Shown here piece by piece: positions 1 to 33,186 of a stretch of DNA of 64,000 nucleotides. The number at the start of each line of letters is the position of its first letter. Positions within the stretch are counted from its first letter, which is position 1. This DNA comes from Enterobacteria phage KhF3, in the sequence record KT184315.1, one strand, 5' to 3'. Both the position numbers and the translations under genes were made by a program. Under the pieces are notes generated by a model that saw only the letters and a program-made list of their open reading frames with translations, was not told the origin of the DNA and did no database searches.

Positions 1-62
1 TATGAAAGCTAACATTAACAAGCAACGTAGAAAACCTTTCTAAGTTGACTAGGTAGCCTCTT

Positions 63-308
63 CGGAGGCTCCTTTTTAAAAGGTCTTTAAACAGGGTCTT
101 TTAATAAGGTGCTGTTTTGTCCGGTATGGNGGNGTNNNGTGAGGTNTGGTTTGGTAAGGTAGGGTCTGGTATGGGTAGTTAGTCTCAGCTACATTAAAAT
201 GAGACTTACCTTTTTAAAAGGTCTTTAAAAGGGTCTTTTAACAAGGTATTGTATGGTGTAGTTTGGTTAGGTATGGTTAGGTGTGGTAAGGTAAGGTATG
301 GAAGGATG
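63..308. repeat. Duplicated ~100-bp unit: conserved ~45-bp segment followed by a degenerate pentamer (GGTNN)n array; copy 1 contains ambiguous bases
   Basis: Seen directly: TTTTAAAAGGTCTTTAAA(C/A)AGGGTCTTTTAA at 66-110 and 213-258; GGT-phased 5-mers at 121-180 (with N) and 246-308. Confidence 0.6.
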
Positions 309-425
309 GCAGTAGCCTTATAAAAAATCTGCCAAATAAGCTATAAAATCTGTTGACAAGTCAGGTGTTATAGCTTATTTTTATACTCAATGTAATACAA
401 AATTTAATATAACTTTGAGGTCATT

Positions 426-20220: not shown

Positions 20221-20669
20221 TATTCATCTCGCTCGATAATAAATACGCCATTAACACGGTTGCAGTAATCTCTGCCTTCGTATCTGGCAGCATCACCATA
20301 TTCTGTGTATTTCTTGACAGAGCAAGGATTCTGACGACGCATGTCAATATCACACTGATTAATACCACCTGCATAGGGTAGTCCTGAAACAGAGCTTTTA
20401 ACAAGGTCGTCATAAACAGCTTTCAGAGATTTGAATCTGGAAGAGTTACGTAAATAGACACCACCAACTTTCTCATCTCCCATCTTGGCTACTTGAAAGA
20501 GTAAATATTTAAGAGCTTTGATGGCTGCTTTCTTTTCATCCTTTCCAGATTCTAGATAGAACCACTCTAGCACAGACTGCTCAATAAGAATTTCATCATT
20601 ATTGGTGTCTGTGCAGAGGATTCTTACTCTATCAAGAGGGTTATTGGCTGGGTCGCCTGTATAACACAT
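20220..20669 (-). CDS. Head completion/adaptor protein
   Basis: 149 aa; directly downstream of major capsid gene. Confidence 0.4.
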   Translation of the reverse strand: MCYTGDPANNPLDRVRILCTDTNNDEILIEQSVLEWFYLESGKDEKKAAIKALKYLLFQVAKMGDEKVGGVYLRNSSRFKSLKAVYDDLVKSSVSGLPYAGGINQCDIDMRRQNPCSVKKYTEYGDAARYEGRDYCNRVNGVFIIERDE

Positions 20670-20690
20670 TCATAACCCTCCTTAAGAATA

Positions 20691-21797
20691 TTAGTCTGGT
20701 TTAGCGTCAGAACGAACGTCTACCAGCAACTGAGGACGTGTGCAGTATGGCAGCATGTAAGAGTGAGCTTCAAAGTCAATACCTTCGTCACGGTCTTTTT
20801 CGTATTCGAATACGTACAGTTCCTGACCAAGTGTATTTGCATAACCCATCTTAGGACATGGACCATATGCCACTTCGAAGATGTTGTTTGCTTCACCCAG
20901 CATAGAAACGTTAGGGAAAGCATGACCTACACCAACAGTTGCTGCTACACTATCAATACTCACCAGAGTGTGAACCTTACCACGCTTATCTTTGAACTTA
21001 CCGTTGTACTGGACAAACTTAACACCACCGTAGTAGAAAGTGTTCATGTGAGCCTGAACGCCGTCAGTACCACCAGTTCTCAGAGAACCAGTAATCTGTT
21101 GCCAAGCCAGCGGAGTCTGCTGTGCAAGATAAGCGTCACGAATCTTAGGATGTTTAGTAAGCTTGCTGAAGAACACACGGTCAACAACTACGTGAATTTC
21201 TTCACCGTTGATTACAGTGCCAGTCTTAGCTTCATCTTCCATGTGCATACGCAGTTCTTCAATAGAAGCGTCGATGTCAGCATTAGGGTTGTCAAGGTCG
21301 AAGTAAATAGTCTTCTTCTCAACGTCGAACTGCTTGTACAGGTCAGCGTACAGAGTACCACGAGCATCAACAACTTTACCCTTCAGAGCTTGCATAAACA
21401 GGAACTCACGAGTAATATCGAACTTGGTACGAATCTTCATCAGCTTCTTGGCACGTACTACAGCTTCAGTAGTCAGTTCGTTTGCAGTGCCTGGCTGACG
21501 TACACCCTGAATCTCATCAGGAGTAATGCTTTCAACTTCTTTGAAGTACATCATTGGGAAGCTGATTTGACGAACACGCTCAGGTGCGCTAGTCTCTGCT
21601 TTACGGCTATCACGGTCTACCGCATCAAGCAAGCTAACATCCCAATCAGTCAAGTCCATAAGGAAAGTAGTTTGGGTGATTGGTGCTGAACGGAATAGAC
21701 CTAAGTTGGAAATATACCCATAAGTATTTGGGATAGACTGGACTTCACCAGTCAGGTCAGCAAGGAAAAATCTGCTTTTTTCAGAATTAGTCAACAT
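20691..21797 (-). CDS. Major capsid protein
   Basis: 368 aa; follows protease/scaffold and small decoration-like gene; strong codon usage. Confidence 0.7.
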   Translation of the reverse strand: MLTNSEKSRFFLADLTGEVQSIPNTYGYISNLGLFRSAPITQTTFLMDLTDWDVSLLDAVDRDSRKAETSAPERVRQISFPMMYFKEVESITPDEIQGVRQPGTANELTTEAVVRAKKLMKIRTKFDITREFLFMQALKGKVVDARGTLYADLYKQFDVEKKTIYFDLDNPNADIDASIEELRMHMEDEAKTGTVINGEEIHVVVDRVFFSKLTKHPKIRDAYLAQQTPLAWQQITGSLRTGGTDGVQAHMNTFYYGGVKFVQYNGKFKDKRGKVHTLVSIDSVAATVGVGHAFPNVSMLGEANNIFEVAYGPCPKMGYANTLGQELYVFEYEKDRDEGIDFEAHSYMLPYCTRPQLLVDVRSDAKPD

Positions 21798-21830
21798 TGT
21801 AAAATTCTCCAGAATGTCTTATTATTGTTA

Positions 21831-22208
21831 TTACAGGCCAGTTGGTACGAAATCAATACCTTTAGCAGCCAGAGCTGTCTTGACTGCATCAGCATCAACA
21901 CCTGATTCAAGAGTAAGCAGGTCTTTTAGTTCTGCGTCACGGTAAATACCAACAACTTTCAACTGACCGTGGTAAGACAGTTGTAGGTCTGCATAAAAGT
22001 TAACGATACATACAGAATCAGCCTGAGCTTCTTCCCCTGCTGCAACTTTAGTACCATCTGCTTTCAGGACTTCACCTACACGGTATTCTGTTGAAGCAAC
22101 TGGAGTGTACTCTTTACGAGAGTGGCCTGTTGGGGTAATCTGTTCCCAAAGAATGATATCATTCAGAGGTTCTCTGTTACCTAACTTAGTAAAACCTTGA
22201 TATGCCAT
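21831..22208 (-). CDS. Head decoration-like protein
   Basis: 125 aa between protease/scaffold and capsid gene (lambda gpD-like position). Confidence 0.4.
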   Translation of the reverse strand: MAYQGFTKLGNREPLNDIILWEQITPTGHSRKEYTPVASTEYRVGEVLKADGTKVAAGEEAQADSVCIVNFYADLQLSYHGQLKVVGIYRDAELKDLLTLESGVDADAVKTALAAKGIDFVPTGL

Positions 22209-22219
22209 TATTGTGTTCC

Positions 22220-23566
22220 TTATTTGATAAGAGATTTTAGAGCATTCTGGAGAGCCAGTTTGCGTTGTTCAGCGGTGTCTTCGGAAGCATTCTTAGCTGG
22301 TTCTTTTTCTTCTTCAACCAAATCAGCTTCGCCGTCATTACCCATTTCTTCCATAGCATTAGAATGTTCAAGAACAGCACCAGCAGTTTCTTTCAGCTTG
22401 GTAATTTCTGATTCTTTTTCTTCCATTGCAGAAGCATGGGACGCGATAGTTTCATTAAGTTTCTGGTTAGCACCTTCCATAGCATTCATAAACAGAACAC
22501 TCAGAGGGTTATCAAGACCAGCACCTAAAATAGTCGTTGCAGCTTCTTTTGCATCAAATCCAAAAGCTTCAGCAGAAGCAGAAATCTTATTAGTCAAATC
22601 TGACAAAGCAGCTTCCTGTTCTTTAGCTTTCATTTGAGCAACCTGAAGACGCAAAGCTTCTAGTTCTTGCTTTTCTTGTTCAGTCATTTCTTCACCTGAA
22701 TTGTTAACGTTTAAACTTACAGGAGCCTCTTCAGAACCTTGTAAGTAATTTAAGAAATCATCTTGAGACATGATTGAGTTAATTAAACCAAGTTCAAGAG
22801 CTTCCTGAGCAGAATAAACATTCGCCTCAGTATTCTTTACAGCTTCTTCAGAGAGATTACGAGATTCGGCTACAAAACCTGTAAAGGTTGCGTAGGTATC
22901 ATTAATTCTCTTTTGAAGTCTTTCTTTGCTTTCTTCTGAGAGTGCTTGGAATGGTGAACCCATACCTTTAAACTCACCAGCTTTGATGACGTTAATTGTT
23001 ACGCCATTCTTTTCAAATGCCTTAGTTAATTCCTGATGAACCATGATTACACCAATAGAACCAACATCTGCATCTGGTGATGCAATAATTTCTTCAGCAG
23101 AAGATGCAAGAGCGTATGCAGCGGAACAAGCGAACTCATCTACATAAGCAATAATTTTCTTTTGGCCTCTTGAAGCCATAATGTGACGTGCTAATTCAAA
23201 GCAACCTGAAGCTTCACCACCACCAGAATCAATGTGCAGAACGATAGTCTTAATTGACTCATCTGCTAAAGCTTCGTCAAAGCCTCTACGCAAACCTTCA
23301 TAAGAGCTTAATCCACCTGTACACATTGCATCAATGAATGTCATACGATGGGTTAAACCACCCATAATAGGGATAATAGCAATGTCATCTTTCACTTTTA
23401 AAAGACTTCTTGCTTCACCTTTGGGTTTATCAAAGTTTACTGCTGCTTGGACATCACCCAGCAATCTGTTATTCACATAAGTTGCTGCTGAGTGAGCTAA
23501 TGATTCAGTGGCTAGTAAAGGTTGGTTGAATAATCTATCAGCAAGTCTGAAGATATTCGAACTCAT
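22220..23566 (-). CDS. Prohead protease (S49/SppA-ClpP-like) fused to scaffold domain
   Basis: N-terminal half peptidase-like (IIPIMGGLT..., GGEASG...); C-terminal E/A/K-rich coiled coil. Confidence 0.65.
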   Translation of the reverse strand: MSSNIFRLADRLFNQPLLATESLAHSAATYVNNRLLGDVQAAVNFDKPKGEARSLLKVKDDIAIIPIMGGLTHRMTFIDAMCTGGLSSYEGLRRGFDEALADESIKTIVLHIDSGGGEASGCFELARHIMASRGQKKIIAYVDEFACSAAYALASSAEEIIASPDADVGSIGVIMVHQELTKAFEKNGVTINVIKAGEFKGMGSPFQALSEESKERLQKRINDTYATFTGFVAESRNLSEEAVKNTEANVYSAQEALELGLINSIMSQDDFLNYLQGSEEAPVSLNVNNSGEEMTEQEKQELEALRLQVAQMKAKEQEAALSDLTNKISASAEAFGFDAKEAATTILGAGLDNPLSVLFMNAMEGANQKLNETIASHASAMEEKESEITKLKETAGAVLEHSNAMEEMGNDGEADLVEEEKEPAKNASEDTAEQRKLALQNALKSLIK

Positions 23567-23577
23567 TTTTACTCACC

Positions 23578-23910
23578 CTATTTGTTTAAATCTACAGAGA
23601 CTGAAGAGATAACATAGATACCTTCTTCAGCGAAGAATTGAGGTTTGCTAAGAGCACCAGTTGCCACGCATTTATCGTTAGCATCCCACAAGCTATAGTG
23701 TGAGACCGTTGCAGAAGCTGGAACAGTAATATTAACTGTATCTTCTGAGGCAATTAAGCCATTATCCGGTTCAGAAAAATAAATAGCCACTGGCTGAGTA
23801 ACCTTATTTGCTGTAGGGTCTGCCGTTGGGTCTACATTGTGTAAAATAATAGTCGTTGGGGTTAGCGTGGCGAGGATTTTATTCTTACCATCAATAGTTA
23901 ATGTTCCCAT
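23578..23910 (-). CDS. Hypothetical protein
   Basis: 110 aa ORF in head module. Confidence 0.4.
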   Translation of the reverse strand: MGTLTIDGKNKILATLTPTTIILHNVDPTADPTANKVTQPVAIYFSEPDNGLIASEDTVNITVPASATVSHYSLWDANDKCVATGALSKPQFFAEEGIYVISSVSVDLNK

Positions 23911-24410
23911 TAATTAAACCTTACTTTTTGTTTAAGGACTGTTGAATGGTTACCAGATTCATCTACCACATTTACAATCATATCATATACTTTACCTTTG
24001 ACAAGTACTTTGTAATCATTTTGTGAAAAAATGTATTCAAGTCTGTTTGTTTCTTTATTAACTGTCATTGGAGATTGAAATGCAGTATCGAGGGTAATGA
24101 AAGCGGCTTCAATGCTATTAACATTGATACGTTTATTCTCGCAGTTATATAACTTTACACCCAAAAGGCATGAGCTGTCAAATGGAATTTTAACAATTTC
24201 ACTACAATTTCCTGAAATAAACGGTTTTCCACTCATTGGTGCATCAAGTAACCTGCAAATAGTGAAAACGTCAGAGACTCCACCATCACTAACATAACCT
24301 GAAAGGCTGACCCTTGAGCCAGCCTCTACAGATAACTTGTCAGTAATGATAAGGACACCCCTATACGAATGCACTCGTGTAGCATTTGAAATAGAGATAA
24401 CTTCAGCCAT
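23910..24410 (-). CDS. Hypothetical protein
   Basis: 166 aa ORF downstream of portal. Confidence 0.4.
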   Translation of the reverse strand: MAEVISISNATRVHSYRGVLIITDKLSVEAGSRVSLSGYVSDGGVSDVFTICRLLDAPMSGKPFISGNCSEIVKIPFDSSCLLGVKLYNCENKRINVNSIEAAFITLDTAFQSPMTVNKETNRLEYIFSQNDYKVLVKGKVYDMIVNVVDESGNHSTVLKQKVRFN

Positions 24411-25885
24411 TATTTATTTGCCTTATTTGCTGTGCTTGGGTCTTTCGCTGAAGGTGTCTTTGCAGTACCTTCTCCAGCGGTCTTATAACCATCTCCTGAG
24501 CGGCTTTGGCTATTTGGAGAAAGCTTTTCAGATACTGGCTGAGACTCATCAGCAGGAGGAAGACCAATATGCTCTCTAAGTTTGTTAGATAGCTCTTTGT
24601 CAACTTCCAAAGCACCTACTGCAACAGTCTTCTGAATATAAGAACCAATTGCTTCAAGGTCTGGAGTTTCGATATCATCATATGTGATTTGTACATGTTC
24701 TTCATCATCCCACATATTAAGAGCATAAGTCTGTGCAACTAAATCACGGTTAATTACGTTCTTAATTTGCTTCAGCAGAATATCTACTGACATTGCTAGT
24801 AAACTCGTCTTAGAATCTGCAAGAGAGAATGAACCATATTTTGACTGACCCATAGCAAGAACATCTGACATAAATGCCATCATAATCTGCTTGGAATATC
24901 TGTCAATAATAGAACCTGTATCGTATGCTTTAGCACCCTGTCTAGAAACTAATGAGAACTCAAAAATATCCTCTTTAGTATCTGGGTCGATATATCTAGG
25001 CCAGATTAAACCTGCTCTATCATTAGCAATCATATCGTTAACAACAGTTTTGCAGTATTGTACGAAAGCTTTCTTTTCAGGTTCTGCATTTTCATCTAGA
25101 TAGTCTGGTGGTAAACCAATCTTTGGCATACCTACTAAGTCTCTTGAAACGCCAACAGCCTCATACTCTTCAATCTGTACTTTATATTTCCACGGTACAT
25201 AAGCATTAAGTAGTGGTGAACGACCTTCTGGATTTCCATATTCATCGTCATACTTAAACAGCATGAATTTAGCTCGTGGAAGTTTTCTTGTTAGAGGTCT
25301 TTCTCCAAGATTAATTGCTCCAGCAATATGTGAAACATTTCTCAGATTCTGTCTAACACCAGTAACTTTCCTAAAGTCTTCGTCAAAATACCACTTATCA
25401 AGTGTTGATTGGTTTCTGATTGGTAATTTAGCCCATCCAATTAGACCATCATCAAATTTAGACTGGTACTTTCCTTTTTTACCCTGACGTTTCTTATAAA
25501 CCTTTTCGTTAACACAGAACCCATAAGTGCAGAATGACATTACAGAGTTAATAAAATCTGCCCAATCATGCTCCATGTCATCCATTAAAGAATTAAAGAA
25601 GTCTGCTCTTTCAAGCATTTTAGGGTCTTGCTCTTTTCCCTTTGGAGGTACGAATCTCCAGTTGACTTTTCTGACAAACATCTTAATAATATTTACAGAT
25701 GCTGCTACAGCAGGGTCACGCATCATTAATTGGAAAGTTTTAATACTTTCAGGGAACCTTAGTGCCTGACGAGGTTCTTCATAGATTCTTCCATTCTTAA
25801 CCTTCAGACCCAAAGAACCTACTTCACCCATTCTAAATGGTGGTAAGCTTTCTTGTGTTTCTGTAATATCTGCCATTCTTCTCAC
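24410..25885 (-). CDS. Portal protein
   Basis: 491 aa immediately downstream of large terminase. Confidence 0.7.
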   Translation of the reverse strand: MRRMADITETQESLPPFRMGEVGSLGLKVKNGRIYEEPRQALRFPESIKTFQLMMRDPAVAASVNIIKMFVRKVNWRFVPPKGKEQDPKMLERADFFNSLMDDMEHDWADFINSVMSFCTYGFCVNEKVYKKRQGKKGKYQSKFDDGLIGWAKLPIRNQSTLDKWYFDEDFRKVTGVRQNLRNVSHIAGAINLGERPLTRKLPRAKFMLFKYDDEYGNPEGRSPLLNAYVPWKYKVQIEEYEAVGVSRDLVGMPKIGLPPDYLDENAEPEKKAFVQYCKTVVNDMIANDRAGLIWPRYIDPDTKEDIFEFSLVSRQGAKAYDTGSIIDRYSKQIMMAFMSDVLAMGQSKYGSFSLADSKTSLLAMSVDILLKQIKNVINRDLVAQTYALNMWDDEEHVQITYDDIETPDLEAIGSYIQKTVAVGALEVDKELSNKLREHIGLPPADESQPVSEKLSPNSQSRSGDGYKTAGEGTAKTPSAKDPSTANKANK

Positions 25886-27941: not shown

Positions 27942-28014
27942 AGAATCCGAAGGGACTCGAACCCTTATAAACCTGTTTTGCAGACAGGAACATAGCCATT
28001 TCTGTCACGGATTC
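27942..28014 (-). tRNA. tRNA-Cys (anticodon GCA)
   Basis: Manual fold: T-arm AAGGG-ACTCGAA-CCCTT (plus view), 7-bp acceptor, anticodon loop CTGCAAA, U73, CCA encoded. Confidence 0.7.
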
Positions 28015-28021
28015 AAATTGG

Positions 28022-28111
28022 AGGAAGATACCAGACTTGAACTGGTACACCGATTTCTCAGCTACTGGCAGTTTAGCAAACTGCTCCCTTACCTTTTAGG
28101 GTTAATCTTCC
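28022..28111 (-). tRNA. tRNA-Ser (anticodon GCT), class II
   Basis: T-arm ACCAG-ACTTGAA-CTGGT, 21-nt variable arm, anticodon loop TTGCTAA, perfect 7-bp acceptor. Confidence 0.7.
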
Positions 28112-28112
28112 A

Positions 28113-28847
28113 TTATTTCTGTAATGCGTTCTTCATTTCTGGTGTTGCAATAGTGTCAATCACACCAGTTTTACAAGCATCATCAAACCAGTCTGGTAAG
28201 ATACCTGCTAAGAACCCATTGATATTCGTTTTAAGGTACTCTGCAATAAGAGCAGCTTCTTCTTCAATCATCTGCACAACTTCATCTGCATAAGCTGTAA
28301 TCTTCGAAATACCTTCATTAATCTTACTAACAGCTTGGTTAGCTAAATCAGAAATAGTATCAAGACCTTTGTCAATAGCATCTTGTAAGTCACTTAATAC
28401 ATCATTAACGACATCTAGTGCACTGTTAATTGTGTCAATAGCTTTTTGACCATATTCTGTAGCAACGCCCATAATACCACTAAACGGTGTACAGCCAACT
28501 TGTTCCCCTGCTGCACCCATAACATTGGAATACCCCTTTGCTACCTGCATACGTGATGAAAACTCATCAATAGACTTTTGACCATAGTCTGTTAAGGTCT
28601 TAGTAGTCGCTGTAGTGCTTGTAAGGCTTGTTGTAAAGCTGTTTAGAAGGACTGTTGTAAGTCCAGCAGCAACAAGTTTCTCCTTCATTGTAGGGTCTGT
28701 TACAGAGCTAATAGAACTTACAAGTGATGTAGAGGCAGCTACGGTTCCACCGAGAACTGCTGCACCAGTAATAAGGGGATTAGAAAACCCTCTACCGGTT
28801 TTTAAGAGATTAAAAATCTCCTTACCTTGTTCTGTCATCTCTTTCAT
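28113..28847 (-). CDS. Hypothetical protein (Ser/Thr-rich) embedded in tRNA region
   Basis: Start moved to internal ATG at 28847 because track start 28910 overlaps tRNA-Phe. Confidence 0.4.
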   Translation of the reverse strand: MKEMTEQGKEIFNLLKTGRGFSNPLITGAAVLGGTVAASTSLVSSISSVTDPTMKEKLVAAGLTTVLLNSFTTSLTSTTATTKTLTDYGQKSIDEFSSRMQVAKGYSNVMGAAGEQVGCTPFSGIMGVATEYGQKAIDTINSALDVVNDVLSDLQDAIDKGLDTISDLANQAVSKINEGISKITAYADEVVQMIEEEAALIAEYLKTNINGFLAGILPDWFDDACKTGVIDTIATPEMKNALQK

Positions 28848-28865
28848 TAAGCACCTTTGTAATTG

Positions 28866-28940
28866 GTAGTCCAGTGGGATTTGAACCCTCTTCTCATGTT
28901 TTTCAGACACGCGCTTTAACCATATAAGCTACTTGGACTA
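28866..28940 (-). tRNA. tRNA-Phe (anticodon GAA)
   Basis: T-loop ATTTGAA (plus view), 7/7 acceptor pairing, anticodon loop CTGAAAA. Confidence 0.65.
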
Positions 28941-28948
28941 TAAATTGG

Positions 28949-29021
28949 GGTGACCTACGGGATTTGAACCCGTATAGACCATGTTCACAGCATGGGTCAT
29001 TACCATTTATGATAAGGCCAC
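28949..29021 (-). tRNA. tRNA-His (anticodon GTG)
   Basis: Perfect T-stem and anticodon stem, loop CTGTGAA, discriminator C73, CCA encoded. Confidence 0.7.
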
Positions 29022-29055
29022 ATTTAAGGACTCTCGTAAGAATCCTTAGAAGTGG

Positions 29056-29128
29056 CAGCGGCATAAGGATTTGAACCTTAATAGGACAGCTTCAGAGACT
29101 GTTGCATTGCCAGTTATGCTATACCGCT
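29056..29128 (-). tRNA. tRNA-Gln (anticodon CTG)
   Basis: T-arm TAAGG-ATTTGAA-CCTTA, anticodon loop CTCTGAA, G73. Confidence 0.65.
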
Positions 29129-29136
29129 AAATTTGG

Positions 29137-29212
29137 TACTCCATATCGGATTCGAACCGATACATAACACAGATTTTAAGTCTGGCCTCTCTGCCAATTG
29201 GAGTAATGGAGC
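29137..29212 (-). tRNA. tRNA with anticodon TAA (Leu codon UUA) but class-I length
   Basis: Perfect T-arm ATCGG-ATTCGAA-CCGAT, A73, CCA encoded; anticodon loop CTTAAAA; 7-nt variable region only. Confidence 0.55.
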
Positions 29213-29217
29213 ATTGG

Positions 29218-29290
29218 CGGGGGATGTTGGAATTGAACCAACTTCTTCGATTTCAAAGACCGAGGTTTTAACCTTGTAAACTAATCCCCT
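29218..29290 (-). tRNA. tRNA-Gln (anticodon TTG)
   Basis: T-arm GTTGG-AATTGAA-CCAAC, anticodon loop CTTTGAA, G73. Confidence 0.65.
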
Positions 29291-29298
29291 TTAAATCT

Positions 29299-29856
29299 TT
29301 ACTTTCTCAGTGGATGAATAAAGAATGCCAACATAACTCTTTCCCTTGAGAATGCTCTTTCTTCTGGGACAACACTTTTTAGTTTCCATCCAATATAAAT
29401 TCTCCAGTAAAACTGTTTACCAAAGACTTTAATTGATGGGATAAAGGCGAATAATCCCCAAGCATTACTGTTCCACATTAGGAGATAACCAGTCTGATTA
29501 TCTTCAGGGTCAGAACTTACGTTGATATTACCTTTCCACTTAGTAACATCTTTTACATCTCTTCCTAATACATGGTAAGAGAAGTTATAAGCTTTGTTTC
29601 TCCAGAGCCATCCGACTCTTTGCATGTAGACGCCTAGTTTACCAATCCATCTAATATTAGCCCATCTTTTAACGTGACCTTCATCACCATCAATTGGGTT
29701 GTCATATGTCTCCATCCATCTGAACCCGAAAGGTAAGTGTCCTTTCTTCTCACTGTAGAATGGAACTACAAAAGGTGCTAAGATAACTGCTAAGATTGCT
29801 GCAAATGGTTCTAACAAAGCTAAGAAAATCCATGAAGCATACTTTAAGTATCTCAT
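29299..29856 (-). CDS. Hypothetical membrane protein
   Basis: 185 aa; N-terminal TM WIFLALLEPFAAILAVILAPFVV; Trp-rich. Confidence 0.4.
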   Translation of the reverse strand: MRYLKYASWIFLALLEPFAAILAVILAPFVVPFYSEKKGHLPFGFRWMETYDNPIDGDEGHVKRWANIRWIGKLGVYMQRVGWLWRNKAYNFSYHVLGRDVKDVTKWKGNINVSSDPEDNQTGYLLMWNSNAWGLFAFIPSIKVFGKQFYWRIYIGWKLKSVVPEERAFSRERVMLAFFIHPLRK

Positions 29857-30095
29857 TGTCTAATCCTCGTAAGGAGGTAAATGTTATTATTCGTTTCTAA
29901 ACCTTCTGGTAAAACTATCTCAAAAATAACACTCTTCAGATGTCTACCACCAAAACAATCACGTATAAATCTTTCTACTCTAGCGGGGTCACATAAGTAT
30001 CCCACTTTTAAGAAAATGTGGTGTTCAACACCAATGACCCTGACAAACTCAATACTCTCACAGTTTTCATGTTCAACTACTGTTAATGTTTGCAT
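29853..30095 (-). CDS. Hypothetical protein
   Basis: 80 aa ORF coupled to downstream gene. Confidence 0.4.
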   Translation of the reverse strand: MQTLTVVEHENCESIEFVRVIGVEHHIFLKVGYLCDPARVERFIRDCFGGRHLKSVIFEIVLPEGLETNNNIYLLTRIRQ

Positions 30096-30115
30096 AGTAT
30101 CACCTTTTTATCTGG

Positions 30116-30188
30116 CGCAGGATAAGGGATTCGAACCCCTATTAACAGCTTCGTAGACTGTTGCTCTTTCCATTTGAACTAATCCTGC
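30116..30188 (-). tRNA. tRNA-Arg (anticodon ACG)
   Basis: 7/7 acceptor pairing, T-loop ATTCGAA, anticodon loop CTACGAA. Confidence 0.7.
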
Positions 30189-30196
30189 AAAATTGG

Positions 30197-30271
30197 TGTT
30201 CCAAGACGGATTCGAACCGTCACTAATACAAGGTTTGAGCTTGCATCCTCTGCCAATTGGGATACTGGAAC
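30197..30271 (-). tRNA. tRNA with anticodon CAA (Leu codon UUG) but class-I length
   Basis: Perfect T-arm GACGG-ATTCGAA-CCGTC, A73, anticodon loop CTCAAAC, 6-nt variable region. Confidence 0.55.
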
Positions 30272-30275
30272 ATGG

Positions 30276-30347
30276 TACTCACTAAAGGACTTGAACCTTT
30301 TTCTTCATCTTGTAAGGGTGATGTTTTACCATATAAACTAAGCGAGT
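30276..30347 (-). tRNA. tRNA-Val (anticodon TAC)
   Basis: T-arm AAAGG-ACTTGAA-CCTTT, anticodon loop CTTACAA, A73. Confidence 0.65.
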
Positions 30348-30443
30348 ATGAAAGAGGTCTGGAGTTGTGCCGCTAACTCAACTCCGTGGAATTTGTTACG
30401 GTCTTCAGTTGACTCAAAGCGGTCTTTCACTTGACCTCTGAAT
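30348..30443 (-). ncRNA. Structured non-tRNA spacer (candidate small RNA or processing element)
   Basis: No T-loop signature; hairpin GGAGTTG-N11-CAACTCC at 30361-30385; long-range GAGGTC/GACCTC; contains ACGGTCTTC motif. Confidence 0.3.
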
Positions 30444-30446
30444 TGG

Positions 30447-30519
30447 TGCTCCCACAAGGACTCGAACCCTGATAAGTTGCTTACAAGGCAACCGTAATAA
30501 CCAATTATACGATAGGAGC
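30447..30519 (-). tRNA. tRNA-Thr (anticodon TGT)
   Basis: Perfect anticodon stem GTTGC/GCAAC, loop CTTGTAA, A73. Confidence 0.7.
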
Positions 30520-30529
30520 ATTAATTTGG

Positions 30530-30601
30530 AGCATCCAGAGGGAATCGAACCCTCAACCTCAGTTTGGAAGACTGTAATTTTCCCGTTTAAACTATGGATG
30601 C
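30530..30601 (-). tRNA. tRNA-Gly (anticodon TCC)
   Basis: Perfect acceptor and T-stem, loop CTTCCAA, U73. Confidence 0.7.
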
Positions 30602-30610
30602 ACTAATTGG

Positions 30611-30683
30611 TGGAGTCACCGAGAATTGAACTCGGTTCCCAAGTTTGCAAAACTCGAATTTTAACCATATAAACTATGACCCC
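30611..30683 (-). tRNA. tRNA-Ala (anticodon TGC)
   Basis: G3:U70 wobble pair in acceptor stem (Ala identity element), A73, anticodon loop TTTGCAA. Confidence 0.75.
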
Positions 30684-30692
30684 ATTGTTTGG

Positions 30693-30765
30693 TACAGGTG
30701 GAGGGAATTGAACCCATCGTCTTACTGATTAAGAGTCAGCCGCATAACCATTTTGCTACACCTGC
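30693..30765 (-). tRNA. tRNA-Lys (anticodon CTT)
   Basis: T-loop AATTGAA with weak 3-bp T-stem, anticodon loop CTCTTAA, A73. Confidence 0.6.
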
Positions 30766-30775
30766 ATTAATTTGG

Positions 30776-30849
30776 TACACCTAGAGAGATTCGAACTCAC
30801 ACTGAGCAGATTCTAAGTCTGCTGCCTCTACCAGTTGGGCTATAGGTGC
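30776..30849 (-). tRNA. tRNA with anticodon TAG (Leu codons CUA/CUG) but class-I length
   Basis: Perfect anticodon stem GCAGA/TCTGC, loop CTTAGAA, A73, 5-nt variable region. Confidence 0.55.
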
Positions 30850-31104
30850 ATTAAATCTTTTTAGAGAACTTCTAAGAACCTAAGCAACAAGGCTCCACAA
30901 CAAGCTGTAATAACCTTAGAAGCCCTCTAAAAAGACCTAAATAGGTCTTTGCATAGTCTTGTTTAATCCGGTGACTAGAACCTTTGGAGAGCTTGATATT
31001 ATCTCTTCTCCGTGACACCTACTAGGTGCTTTGACAGTGTACGACAATACACGAGGGATAAACCGACAATGCGAACAAGCATGGACGGAGTAAATCTTAT
31101 TAGG

Positions 31105-31192
31105 CGGTAAGTAAAGGAGTCGAACCCTCACCGTATCTCTACAGTGGCAACTGTTTTCAAGACAGTTTGGCTACCATTAGCCGCTACCTACC
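31105..31192 (-). tRNA. tRNA-Ser (anticodon TGA), class II
   Basis: Perfect anticodon stem ACTGT/ACAGT, loop CTTGAAA, 20-nt variable arm, G73. Confidence 0.7.
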
Positions 31193-31208
31193 CCTAATAA
31201 GACTTTGG

Positions 31209-31288
31209 CATGGGACGGAGGAGTTGAACCCCTTTGAAACGGTTTTGGAGGCCGTTGCTCATGCCTTAGAGTCTTAACATCGTCCCAT
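31209..31288 (-). tRNA. tRNA-Trp (anticodon CCA) with enlarged D-loop
   Basis: Perfect 7-bp acceptor, G73, anticodon loop CTCCAAA; about 7 extra nt in D region. Confidence 0.6.
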
Positions 31289-31433
31289 ATTATAATTCGA
31301 AGCTTACCCTGTTATCTCAACACTGTCAAGCTTCTTCTCAGATTATTTACATGTTCTGGAAAACATGAGATACAGACCACCTCCCTACAGGAAGACCCGC
31401 TAAGGCCGTCTAAGTAATCTGCTAACTATTTGG

Positions 31434-31507
31434 TACACCCTACAGGATTCGAACCTGTAACTAACGATTTAGAAGACCGTTGCTCTATCCAATTGAACTA
31501 AGGGTGC
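31434..31507 (-). tRNA. tRNA-Arg (anticodon TCT)
   Basis: Perfect T-arm ACAGG-ATTCGAA-CCTGT, anticodon loop CTTCTAA. Confidence 0.7.
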
Positions 31508-31756
31508 ATTATCTTTAAAGACTCTCTTAGAAAGCCCTTAAAGATGCCCACCTTATTAATCATACCGTGGGCGAGTACGCCAAATTCTTTGATGAGGGAT
31601 TGGAAGACCTCACTGGTGTTTAGCCTATCAAGCTACTGCCAGAAAAACATTGTCGTTTGCATTTATTTTAAATTTGCAAAATAGACGCTACGCAACGAAA
31701 ACTAAGGTTACTATAAAGTAGTCACATCTCAATGTCAACAACTTTATTGAAATTGG

Positions 31757-31829
31757 TACTGGTAGGTGGAATCGAACCACCGATGTTCCCTTATCAGGGG
31801 AGTGTTATAACCTTCTTAACTATACCAGC
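31757..31829 (-). tRNA. tRNA-Ile (anticodon GAT)
   Basis: Perfect T-arm GGTGG-AATCGAA-CCACC, anticodon loop CTGATAA, A73. Confidence 0.7.
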
Positions 31830-31833
31830 TTGG

Positions 31834-31907
31834 AGGTTCAGATGGGAATCGAACCCACATTCATAGGGCTTATGAGACCCTTGCATTACCTTATCTGCGA
31901 CTGAACC
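31834..31907 (-). tRNA. tRNA-Met (anticodon CAT)
   Basis: Perfect 7-bp acceptor, anticodon loop CTCATAA, three G-C pairs in anticodon stem. Confidence 0.65.
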
Positions 31908-31988
31908 AGAATAAGTACCCTAGTTAGAGAAACTGTTGAGTGGGTGTTTCCAGCCGCGCAGGTGTTTCTCAGTTAAGGGTGAATTTGG

Positions 31989-32061
31989 TAGAAGTGGAGG
32001 GATTCGAACCCATCGCCTGTCAGATTAAAAGTCTGCCGCATCACCATTCTGCTACACTTCC
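31989..32061 (-). tRNA. tRNA-Lys (anticodon TTT)
   Basis: Anticodon loop CTTTTAA, A73, T-arm similar to the other Lys tRNA. Confidence 0.65.
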
Positions 32062-32065
32062 ATTA

Positions 32066-32209
32066 AATTATCTTTGTAGATAAGCTACCCAGACTTGCTT
32101 AAGGTCTGTAGCGATGTGCCTTTTTGGGTTTAAATCTAGAATTTACCCTTTCACCCTTTGTGGTCGCATACTCACAGGTAAGCTTAATAACTTATCTACA
32201 AAGATAATT
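32066..32209. repeat. 19-bp perfect inverted repeat (AATTATCTTTGTAGATAAG) with arms about 106 nt apart
   Basis: Left arm 32066-32084, right arm 32191-32209 (reverse complement identical). Confidence 0.7.
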
Positions 32210-32234
32210 ACCAGACCGTTGTTTATCATCTTAA

Positions 32235-32307
32235 GTGCTACCATTACACCAACTCGACATCTGCCGAGTGAAGGAATCGAACCTTCGCCTTTTCTTTACC
32301 GGAGAAA
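32235..32307 (-). ncRNA. tRNA-like element with all tRNA arms present in circularly permuted order (anticodon GGT)
   Basis: Minus-strand order: anticodon arm TTTCT-CCGGTAA-AGAAA, 4-nt variable, T-arm GAAGG-TTCGATT-CCTTC, 3' acceptor ACTCGGC, linker AGAT, 5' acceptor GTCGAGT, U8, D-arm GTGT-AATGGTA-GCAC; bracketed by 8-bp helix (plus 32213-32220 with 32331-32338). Confidence 0.4.
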
Positions 32308-32524
32308 TAGATTGTTTAAGTTTTGCTGTAAACGGTCTTCTGTAAAATTGTTGAGCCAGACCAAGTTTTATAAATTTTTTCAAAATTAAATTGGCTTGAA
32401 AATATCATACGTACTTGCTGAATTTGGTCTTCTGCTCCTTTAAAGAATACTCGTAAGAACTCTTTAAGGGAGGGGCTAAAATAGCCCTCTCAAACATCAT
32501 TTTGAAATACTTATTATAATTTGG

Positions 32525-32599
32525 CGGTTACGAAGGGATTTGAACCCTCATCATCTCCCGTGACAGGGGAGTATTTTAACCAGATTAAACTACATAACC
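32525..32599 (-). tRNA. tRNA-Asp (anticodon GTC)
   Basis: Perfect anticodon stem CTCCC/GGGAG, loop CTGTCAC, T-loop ATTTGAA, CCA encoded. Confidence 0.7.
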
Positions 32600-32608
32600 T
32601 TTATTTGG

Positions 32609-32693
32609 TGTGCCGTGTAGGAGTCGAACCTACCGAGTCTCAATGACAAGGGATTTACAGTCCCCACCGCTACCATCTACGGGATAACGACAC
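32609..32693 (-). tRNA. tRNA-Tyr (anticodon GTA), class II
   Basis: Perfect T-arm GTAGG-AGTCGAA-CCTAC, 15-nt variable arm, anticodon loop CTGTAAA, A73. Confidence 0.7.
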
Positions 32694-32705
32694 ATTTAAA
32701 TTTGG

Positions 32706-32779
32706 CGGTTAGTCAGGGATTCGAACCCTGTGCCATTCGCTTAACAGGCGACCGCACATACCTTATGTGCTTCCTAACC
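32706..32779 (-). tRNA. tRNA-Asn (anticodon GTT)
   Basis: Perfect T-arm CAGGG-ATTCGAA-CCCTG, anticodon loop CTGTTAA, G73. Confidence 0.7.
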
Positions 32780-32856
32780 TTAATACATTGCCAGACCGTG
32801 TTTTTTCTTTTATCCGCAAAAAGTATTTTGTTGCTGAATACGGTCTTCTGCAAAAT
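32780..32856 (-). ncRNA. Repeated hairpin spacer element (CAGAAGACCGT ... ACGGTCTGG family)
   Basis: 7-bp stem AGACCGT/ACGGTCT enclosing about 40 nt that begins ATTCAGCAA; same arms recur at 32211/32331, 32356/32426, 32943/33008. Confidence 0.35.
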
Positions 32857-32859
32857 TGG

Positions 32860-32933
32860 AGGCGGGTGCAGGAGTCGAACCTGCCGATACCATGCTAATG
32901 AGACATGTGAGACGCCCTTTCTCTATACCCGCA
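32860..32933 (-). tRNA. tRNA with anticodon CAT (Met- or Ile2-type) and unpaired 1:72
   Basis: Perfect T-arm GCAGG-AGTCGAA-CCTGC, D-stem GAGA/TCTC, anticodon loop CTCATTA, first acceptor pair mismatched. Confidence 0.55.
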
Positions 32934-33027
32934 ATTCTTAATGACCAGACCAAATCTATTCTTTGTCCGATTTACCTTCAGATGAATAAGATTAAGTTTG
33001 CTGTAATTGGTCTTCTGTCAAAACTGG

Positions 33028-33102
33028 CGTTCCAGAAGGGATTTGAACCCTCAGATATCCACTTTGAAAGAGTGGTGACTTTACCATTTTGTCTACTGGA
33101 AC
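33028..33102 (-). tRNA. tRNA-Glu (anticodon TTC)
   Basis: 7/7 acceptor pairing, perfect anticodon stem, loop CTTTCAA, G73. Confidence 0.7.
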
Positions 33103-33112
33103 ATTAATTTGG

Positions 33113-33186
33113 TCTCTGTTGGAGGACTTGAACCTCCGGCCTTACCGCCCCAAACGGAACGCTCTACCAAGCTGAGCTAAACAGAG
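33113..33186 (-). tRNA. tRNA-Pro (anticodon TGG)
   Basis: 7/7 acceptor pairing, perfect T-arm GGAGG-ACTTGAA-CCTCC, loop TTTGGGG, A73. Confidence 0.7.

Follow-up and report, generated by a model that had tools for sequence, protein, structure and literature searches.

Positions 1-333 of the 64,000-nt stretch of the Enterobacteria phage KhF3 genome analysed here (KT184315.1; hereafter the window) very probably represent the downstream end of a type II (SUSP1-clade) VIPR locus in a Felixounavirus, with two vrRNA genes, a system that the phage most likely uses to silence an E. coli satellite. The system is already known, and the experimentally studied locus of phage SUSP1 is nearly identical.

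VIPR (Viral Interference Programmable Repeat) was reported in two 2026 preprints, which describe a system composed of Vipr, a minimal RAMP protein of ~20 kDa, an accessory protein Vap, and ~100-nt vrRNAs, which in SUSP1 were recovered as RNAs of that size co-purifying with Vipr (10.64898/2026.04.26.720920; 10.64898/2026.04.26.720927). According to the same text, each vrRNA consists of 9-16 YNNGG repeats, in which GGY is conserved and NN is hypervariable, followed by a constant tail that forms a pseudoknot in the SUSP1 clade, as seen by cryo-EM for SUSP1. Vipr is described as a right-handed filament with one protomer per repeat and each GGY flipped out, the NN bases pairing with double-stranded DNA so that every third target base is skipped, and binding of the Vipr-vrRNA complex silences transcription. 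The SUSP1 guides are reported to be aimed mostly at a satellite found in E. coli genomes (10.64898/2026.04.26.720920; 10.64898/2026.04.26.720927).

Positions 1-333 of the window contain two tandem units, in each of which a conserved leader hairpin is followed by 11-13 degenerate GGYNN pentamers and then by a 3' end that includes a hairpin; all features lie on the + strand. The reading frame at 1-43 is the 3' end of a homologue of vap1, the gene of the VIPR accessory protein (last 13 codons MKANINKQRRKPF, stop codon at 41-43), and the residues encoded there are identical to the C-terminus of AYO145A orf089. The terminator scan placed an intrinsic terminator of the vipr-vap operon at 55-77 (stem AGCCTC-TTCG-GAGGCT at 55-70, T-run at 71-77), an element kept in all related loci. 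The first unit comprises leader hairpin 1 (71-109; stem of ~16 bp with its 3' arm reaching the first GGY; RNAfold -11.3 kcal/mol), the vrRNA1 guide tract of 13 GGY/NN units (108-172) and a 3' tail pseudoknot (173-206; stem 1 at 175-178/189-192, stem 2 at 181-187/200-206) supported by covariation. The second comprises leader hairpin 2 (207-248; RNAfold -14.0 kcal/mol; aligned to copy 1), the vrRNA2 guide tract of 11 GGY/NN units (245-299) and a 3' tail pseudoknot with a terminal-type sequence (300-333; stem 1 at 302-305/316-319, stem 2 at 308-312/329-333). The predicted vrRNAs are 99 nt (108-206) and 89 nt (245-333) long. With the register set backward from the conserved 3' end, the unit counts of 13 and 11 both fall within the published range of 9-16 repeats, and they are accompanied by a 3' pseudoknot and an adjacent vap. 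The pattern of three GGTNN units followed by GGT (GGTNNGGTNNGGTNNGGT, at most one mismatch) was found 12 times in the 64-kb window, always on the + strand and always at 138-302, against an expected count of 0.11 (100 shuffles). No ORF of at least 40 aa was present within 44-403, and no Rfam family matched the array region at E ≤ 1.

The duplicated segment and the two pentamer arrays had already been noticed in a reading made from the sequence only, and both were confirmed here with some correction of their limits. The duplication is an exact 21-nt repeat (71-91 and 209-229) extending to ~40 nt (71-110 and 209-247), the two copies differing by one indel and one mismatch; the earlier limits of the second copy (213-258) were off by a few bases and entered the array. 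The arrays themselves, formerly placed at 121-180 and 246-308, run from 108 to 172 and from 245 to 299.

Immediately downstream of the second unit, at 334-381, a 19-nt inverted repeat (AAATAAGCTATAAAATCTG and CAGGTGTTATAGCTTATTT, 89% complementary) surrounds the -35 element (TTGACA) of the promoter that precedes the next gene (426-809), and it resembles an operator. The window also encodes a Cro/C1-type HTH protein (1016-1312). In AYO145A, a similar inverted repeat (GGTGAGTA...TACTCACC; L003 1590-1640) lies over the promoter upstream of the first vrRNA.

The window was assigned to Felixounavirus and matched 251 phage records, the best being XTG1 (95.7% identity over 3 kb) and AYO145A (94.9%). 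It also holds a cluster of 24 tRNA genes (27942-33186, - strand), typical of Felix O1-like phages. In annotated relatives the array site is internal, between AYO145A orf089 and orf088, and a second intergenic region, from the DNA ligase gene to orf090, holds one to three more units with a TTGACA/TATACT promoter ahead of them. The resulting gene order (ligase, vrRNA(s), 195-aa gene, 146-aa gene, vrRNAs) was found in AYO145A, XTG1, tootiki and SUSP1; in the last (L018/L142), the ligase gene, one array, agp039, agp038 and three arrays follow each other, in agreement with the published layout of one vrRNA upstream and three downstream. Within a comparative set composed of the window and 21 related loci, each locus contained 2-5 units, every one of them on the sense strand; conservation was 99-100% in the flanks and in the enclosed gene pair, and the pentamer tracts were almost wholly different. 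No cas1 or cas2 was annotated in the related loci. Some GenBank records mark the arrays as plain repeats (DR_4 in wV8; repeat_region in tootiki, heid, Andreotti, momo and nataliec), these features covering identical DNA stretches but being descriptive only, with no function assigned there; the arrays are absent from the direct-repeat list of the Felix O1 genome paper. The XTG1 record carries unrelated speculative labels near the arrays ('StbAB binding site', 'cos site').

The two enclosed genes correspond to the protein components of VIPR. AYO145A orf090 (195 aa) is 98% identical to SUSP1 agp039 (Vipr), and orf089 (146 aa) is 99% identical to SUSP1 agp038 (Vap1). The RAMP fold and the RNA-contact residues were both recovered for Vipr, with all of the GGY and skip-base contacts named from the cryo-EM structure (H17, K33, E71, M72, R138, C173, D177, W178 and R179) present in the AYO145A and SUSP1 proteins; position 175 is V in both, and the cryo-EM text prints T175. 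Pfam returned nothing for the two proteins, and PHROGs returned only 'unknown function'. The vipr gene was found in 131 phage records (117 at ≥90% identity) and occupied the same place in 22 of the 22 related loci. From the vap 3' end and this synteny, we infer that the KhF3 vipr gene would lie upstream of window position 1.

The association between arrays and RAMP genes was independently replicated outside this phage group. Viral contigs were scanned for seven GGTNN units in a row, and 120 unrelated viral loci were compared. A Vipr-family ORF was present in 35 of the 53 loci with degenerate arrays and in 1 of the 67 loci with simple repeats (microsatellites; Fisher p = 8e-16), and in 77 of 80 cases the array lay on the same strand as the Vipr-family ORF. 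In several unrelated viral contigs (L031, L041, L119, L038, L030, L118, L126, L141), degenerate GGTNN arrays are clustered, up to 11 together; these arrays have constant ends of their own (e.g. AAGGC, AAGGAATGGT and GGGCAGTT), most of the contigs carry a Vipr-family ORF on the same strand, and they probably represent other VIPR types.

The constant parts of the units bear the marks of structured RNA. The 3' ends (~34 nt) fell into four sequence types that aligned without gaps and supported an H-type pseudoknot: among 30 distinct tails, pairing held in 92.7% of cells (28-40% with slid partners), 9 of the 11 pairs were changed on both sides, and covariation reached 0.54 compared to 0.22 in shuffled alignments. 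In the other terminal tail type, the AAGG/CCTT and GGCAG/CTGCC helices of the vrRNA2 tail are replaced by the covarying pairs GTGG/CCAC and GGTAG/CTACC. The AGTCTCA...TGAGACT hairpin that had been seen between the two copies is likewise real, its arms (181-187/200-206) being stem 2 of the vrRNA1 pseudoknot. The leader hairpin forms in 64 of 64 distinct copies, whose sequences fall into two unrelated versions and show both G.U pairs and compensating changes. Like the covarying pseudoknot, these are marks of an RNA read from the + strand. As a guess, the leader hairpin could act in processing, perhaps as a site for RNase III. A canonical terminator separates the downstream vrRNAs from vap, and a search for a sigma-70 promoter of their own gave none. 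In two related loci (L017 3598-3660 and L012 3604-3665), the loop of one leader hairpin carries an insertion of ~26 nt (AAATTATATTCGATAGAGTATCTCAT), with both arms retained.

The guide tracts combine a rigid scaffold with free dinucleotides. In the position weight matrix built from 1025 pentamers of 70 distinct arrays, the frequencies were.76 for G,.89 for G and.84 for T (C.09) at the first three positions, with N4 and N5 near random; position 3 was a pyrimidine at.92 and A at only 0.014. Between orthologous guides of equal length, the median NN identity was 0.35 (random 0.28) compared to 0.89 for GGY. The number of units ranged from 5 to 20 over the 91 clade guides parsed.

Targets of these guides were searched for in E. 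coli. When the whole AYO145A VIPR locus was the query of a permissive BLAST (E ≤ 1), vrRNA-like stretches of ~90 nt were recovered from 153 chromosomes among the complete E. coli genomes; two other queries, window positions 60-345 and the capsid-protease region (20600-24500), recovered nothing from E. coli. The vrRNA-like stretches lie in a satellite island of ~11 kb (L166 8352-19070; variants L167-L184). Besides small ORFs and a non-coding stretch of ~2 kb, this island holds genes for a large serine recombinase, for proteins named 'phage baseplate protein' and 'tape measure protein', for an HNH endonuclease and for a small recombinase. Of 5426 complete E. coli genomes, 567 (about a tenth) contained relatives of the island, at no fewer than four insertion sites (wrbA/ymdF, tonB/yciI, a yecD-adjacent DUF72 gene and lpxL/mdtG). 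The island is often struck by IS elements.

Guides were scored by the fraction of NN bases matched with a 1-nt skip on 19 satellite variants, taken from the 567 satellite-bearing genomes. At a threshold of 80%, 48 of 62 Felix-clade guides matched the 19 variants, compared to 1 of 186 shuffled guides; 34 matched at ≥85% and 16 at ≥90%. With skips of 0, 2 or 3, at most 2 of the 62 guides reached 0.80 (run on 11 variants). Twenty-six of the 34 best guides lie in ORFs of at least 80 aa, and in 23 of the 30 overlaps with ORFs, on either strand, the skipped base fell on codon position 3. No self-targets were detected in the 64-kb window, where the best guide match (0.80) equalled the shuffled-guide maximum (means 0.687 and 0.681, respectively). 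Exact 1-nt-skip scans of IMG/VR with vrRNA1, vrRNA2, two other Felix guides and two SUSP1 guides gave no match.

Five of the 19 islands possess one GGTNN array of their own (L166 17988-18075, L167 11642-11714, L169 10977-11054, L174 11252-11329, L184 10410-10482), ~78-81% identical over ~90 nt to a phage vrRNA with its tail. No Vipr homologue was found in these array-carrying islands (HMM, E ≤ 1), and their arrays would have to borrow the Vipr protein of the helper phage.

Concerning the window itself, the clearest target is that of vrRNA2 (NN = AT AT GT TT TA AT TA GT AA AA AT), a guide that six of the 22 loci carry in identical form. At positions 9551-9520 (- strand) of satellite variant L171 it has two mismatches (20/22), a score equalled by none of 500 shuffles, and the homologous site in two other variants matches at 18/22 and 17/22. 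The L171 site extends from just ahead of an extended -10 (TGcTAGTAT) through the start region of a TTGACA-N17-TAGTAT promoter, 26 nt upstream of the first ATG of the leftward operon of the island, which ends in the tape measure and baseplate genes. From this position, vrRNA2 would be expected to occlude the satellite promoter. The promoter region of L171 (9542-9607) is divergent, with a rightward TTAACA-N18-TATAAT promoter starting 8 bp away from the leftward one, an arrangement that suggests a regulatory switch. Outside the satellite, the vrRNA2 seed gave 15 matches in one-genome-per-species contigs, all from unrelated taxa, and the full pattern gave 8 matches in metagenomes on contigs of 20-41% G+C; both sets were judged to be chance matches, three identical metagenome matches coming from a pelagiphage-like contig.

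Taken as a VIPR locus, the start of the window would hold the last vap1 codons, the operon terminator and two vrRNA genes of ~90-100 nt. By analogy with SUSP1, Vipr, as a minimal Cas7-like RAMP, would place one protomer on each pentamer, flip each GGY and present the NN bases, which would pair with double-stranded DNA while skipping every third base, leading to repression of transcription. The guides of the clade would be aimed at the ~11-kb satellite island, and vrRNA2 in particular at the -10 and start region of its leftward promoter, and the phage would in this way silence its parasite. The sequence-only reading had considered a protein-binding array, and in spirit this holds, except that Vipr protomers bind the RNA transcript, one GGY each, in the service of RNA-guided DNA recognition.

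An element acting as DNA, whether curved DNA, iterons, an R-loop or G-quadruplex replication origin, or a slippage-prone contingency repeat, has features of the arrays in its favour and is nevertheless highly improbable. The arrays are G-rich and C-poor (2270 G and 432 C over 70 arrays), in relatives they lie downstream of a sigma-70 promoter beside the DNA ligase gene, and the GGN3GG spacing could in principle form two-tier quadruplexes. Moreover, the pentamer number varies among phages, and the members of one guide family vary by a single GGTCA unit. The 5-bp period, however, alternates GGT between opposite faces of the duplex and is unsuited to curvature or to binding on one face, while the constraint of the third base to a pyrimidine would be needless for quadruplexes. 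The G.U pairs and compensatory changes in the flanking helices, on the + strand only, are RNA features, and they also argue, with the confinement of the arrays to one strand, against the curvature-inducing role that had been suggested; phase variation, suggested as well, does not agree with units that are non-identical and hence form no microsatellite. Readings at the DNA level are disfavoured because the NN bases carry target information, matching foreign DNA under the 1-nt-skip rule and under no other spacing, because the covariation is of the RNA type, and because viruses of unrelated groups also combine the array with a RAMP gene. T7-type primase sites (GGGTC) and a G-quadruplex or R-loop origin were dropped as candidates after the VIPR preprints and the tests of this analysis.

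The variation in unit number is illustrated by a guide family (GT AC AA TA AG CA CA CA ...; L004 3623, L005 3623, L006 3637, L011 3627) whose members differ by whole pentamers, with three or four GGTCA and one to three GGTAA. One guide of this family matches the satellite at 23 of 24 bases, and array slippage in the family would track the codon-repeat length of the target.

A second alternative, in which the GGU repeats wind round a ring protein and act as an RNA decoy or attenuator, controlling termination or titrating a host protein like the TRAP-bound trp leader or CsrB, has very little probability. TRAP binds 11 (G/U)AG triplets with a spacing of 2-3 nt, and the window resembles such a leader in its 11-13 GGU units with 2-nt spacing, followed by two overlapping helices and a T-run. 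Both systems rely on an oligomeric protein that recognises conserved triplets in single-stranded RNA, set roughly five nucleotides apart and separated by free spacers. The triplet is (G/U)AG in the TRAP leader but GGY in VIPR, however, and the protein is an 11-mer ring in the former and a helical RAMP filament in the latter. The overlapping helices covary jointly as a pseudoknot and not as alternative hairpins, for which, together with the GGY triplet, a TRAP-type (G/U)AG leader was rejected, and tail type 2 has no T-run after stem 2. Spacers are irrelevant in the TRAP leader and would be free to drift in a decoy, whereas in VIPR they bear information, and the NN bases match satellite DNA far above shuffled controls. 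The partner is a Cas7-like RAMP that has been shown to assemble as a helical filament and not as a ring. A Shine-Dalgarno-like decoy was also rejected, as the base before GG shows no purine preference.

The VIPR reading extends less directly to the other guide of the window. For vrRNA1 (NN = GC TT CC AT GG NN GA NT TT AA AG CT AT), the best match on the satellite variants was 17/23, equalled by 91 of 200 shuffles and not above chance, so that a 1-nt-skip target was found for one of the two window guides, vrRNA2. The vrRNA1 guide is a mosaic: its first seven units are identical to those of the XTG1 guide and its last seven to those of the wV8 guide. The XTG1 guide matches the small recombinase gene of the island at 23 of 26 bases, and on that site vrRNA1 matches over its first seven units and then at 3 of 11 bases. 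The switch from the XTG1 to the wV8 allele falls within the 17-nt stretch 130-146, and five of the six N calls in the first array (130, 133, 136-138 and 146), several of which had been noted earlier, occupy the only positions of this stretch where the two alleles differ. A mixed stock, a true recombinant and an assembly chimera would each account for the mosaic, and the earlier suggestion that the Ns come from a heterogeneous or hard-to-assemble repeat is plausible. A tentative and rather unlikely extension is that the GGY scaffold doubles as in-register microhomology, guides recombining by segment, in which case vrRNA1 would be such a mosaic and the Ns at its junction would reflect two alleles coexisting in the sequenced lysate. 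If true, VIPR guides would diversify by built-in shuffling within phage populations, a primitive path to new specificities that is left open by the preprints (10.64898/2026.04.26.720920; 10.64898/2026.04.26.720927).

That the duplication and the Ns come from a mis-assembled repetitive genome end, as the six Ns in the first array and the location at the window start might suggest, is extremely unlikely, since the comparison with related phages proposed in the sequence-only reading recovered the two-unit structure, free of Ns, in the independently sequenced XTG1, AYO145A and wV8 and in 18 IMG/VR contigs, only the 17 nt at 130-146 lack resolved bases, and mapped Felix-type termini lie elsewhere. 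The physical termini of the related phage UAB_Phi87 were mapped beside the homologue of wV8 gp055, unlike the array site, which adjoins the homologue of wV8 gp095, and the window begins at a mere cut of a longer genome. The earlier proposal of a nearby genome terminus does not stand up to these termini or to the location of the site between two genes in every relative; a packaging end or direct terminal repeat was likewise rejected, with genes on both sides in all complete relatives.

Compared with the type II VIPR of SUSP1, the KhF3 locus and its relatives are alike in gene order, vrRNA build, the 1-nt-skip match to a satellite and the absence of self-targets. They differ in that SUSP1 is a Suspvirus while the window phage is a Felixounavirus, in their guide sequences, in the number of downstream vrRNAs (two in the window, three in SUSP1), and in that one guide of the window is mosaic and includes ambiguous bases. 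The available parts of the preprints discuss neither the leader hairpin that precedes each vrRNA nor the promoter that vrRNA2 would target. With respect to class 1 CRISPR, whose backbones (Cas7/Csm3/Cmr4 on crRNA) have a 6-nt period with one base flipped, VIPR has a period of 5 nt with three bases flipped; it also differs in its non-contiguous pairing, in being phage-encoded, and in lacking CRISPR repeats, cas1/cas2, a PAM and a second RRM domain. A CRISPR array was rejected for the window, where nothing but the leader hairpin (~40 nt) forms a long repeat, a 5-nt scaffold makes up the variable part itself, and no Rfam CRISPR direct repeat matched.

VIPR, a class of RNA-guided DNA recognition that came to light only recently, has been proposed as an ancestor of CRISPR effectors, and the present analysis shows it in the large and much-used Felix O1 phage group. 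Three of its central claims were reproduced from sequence alone, namely the association of the array with a RAMP gene, the pseudoknot and the 1-nt-skip satellite code. To these is added the prediction that vrRNA2, a guide common to six or more phages, covers the -10 and start region of the main promoter of the satellite. The presence of the satellite and the guide repertoire may affect the host range and yield of the therapy and typing phages of this group.
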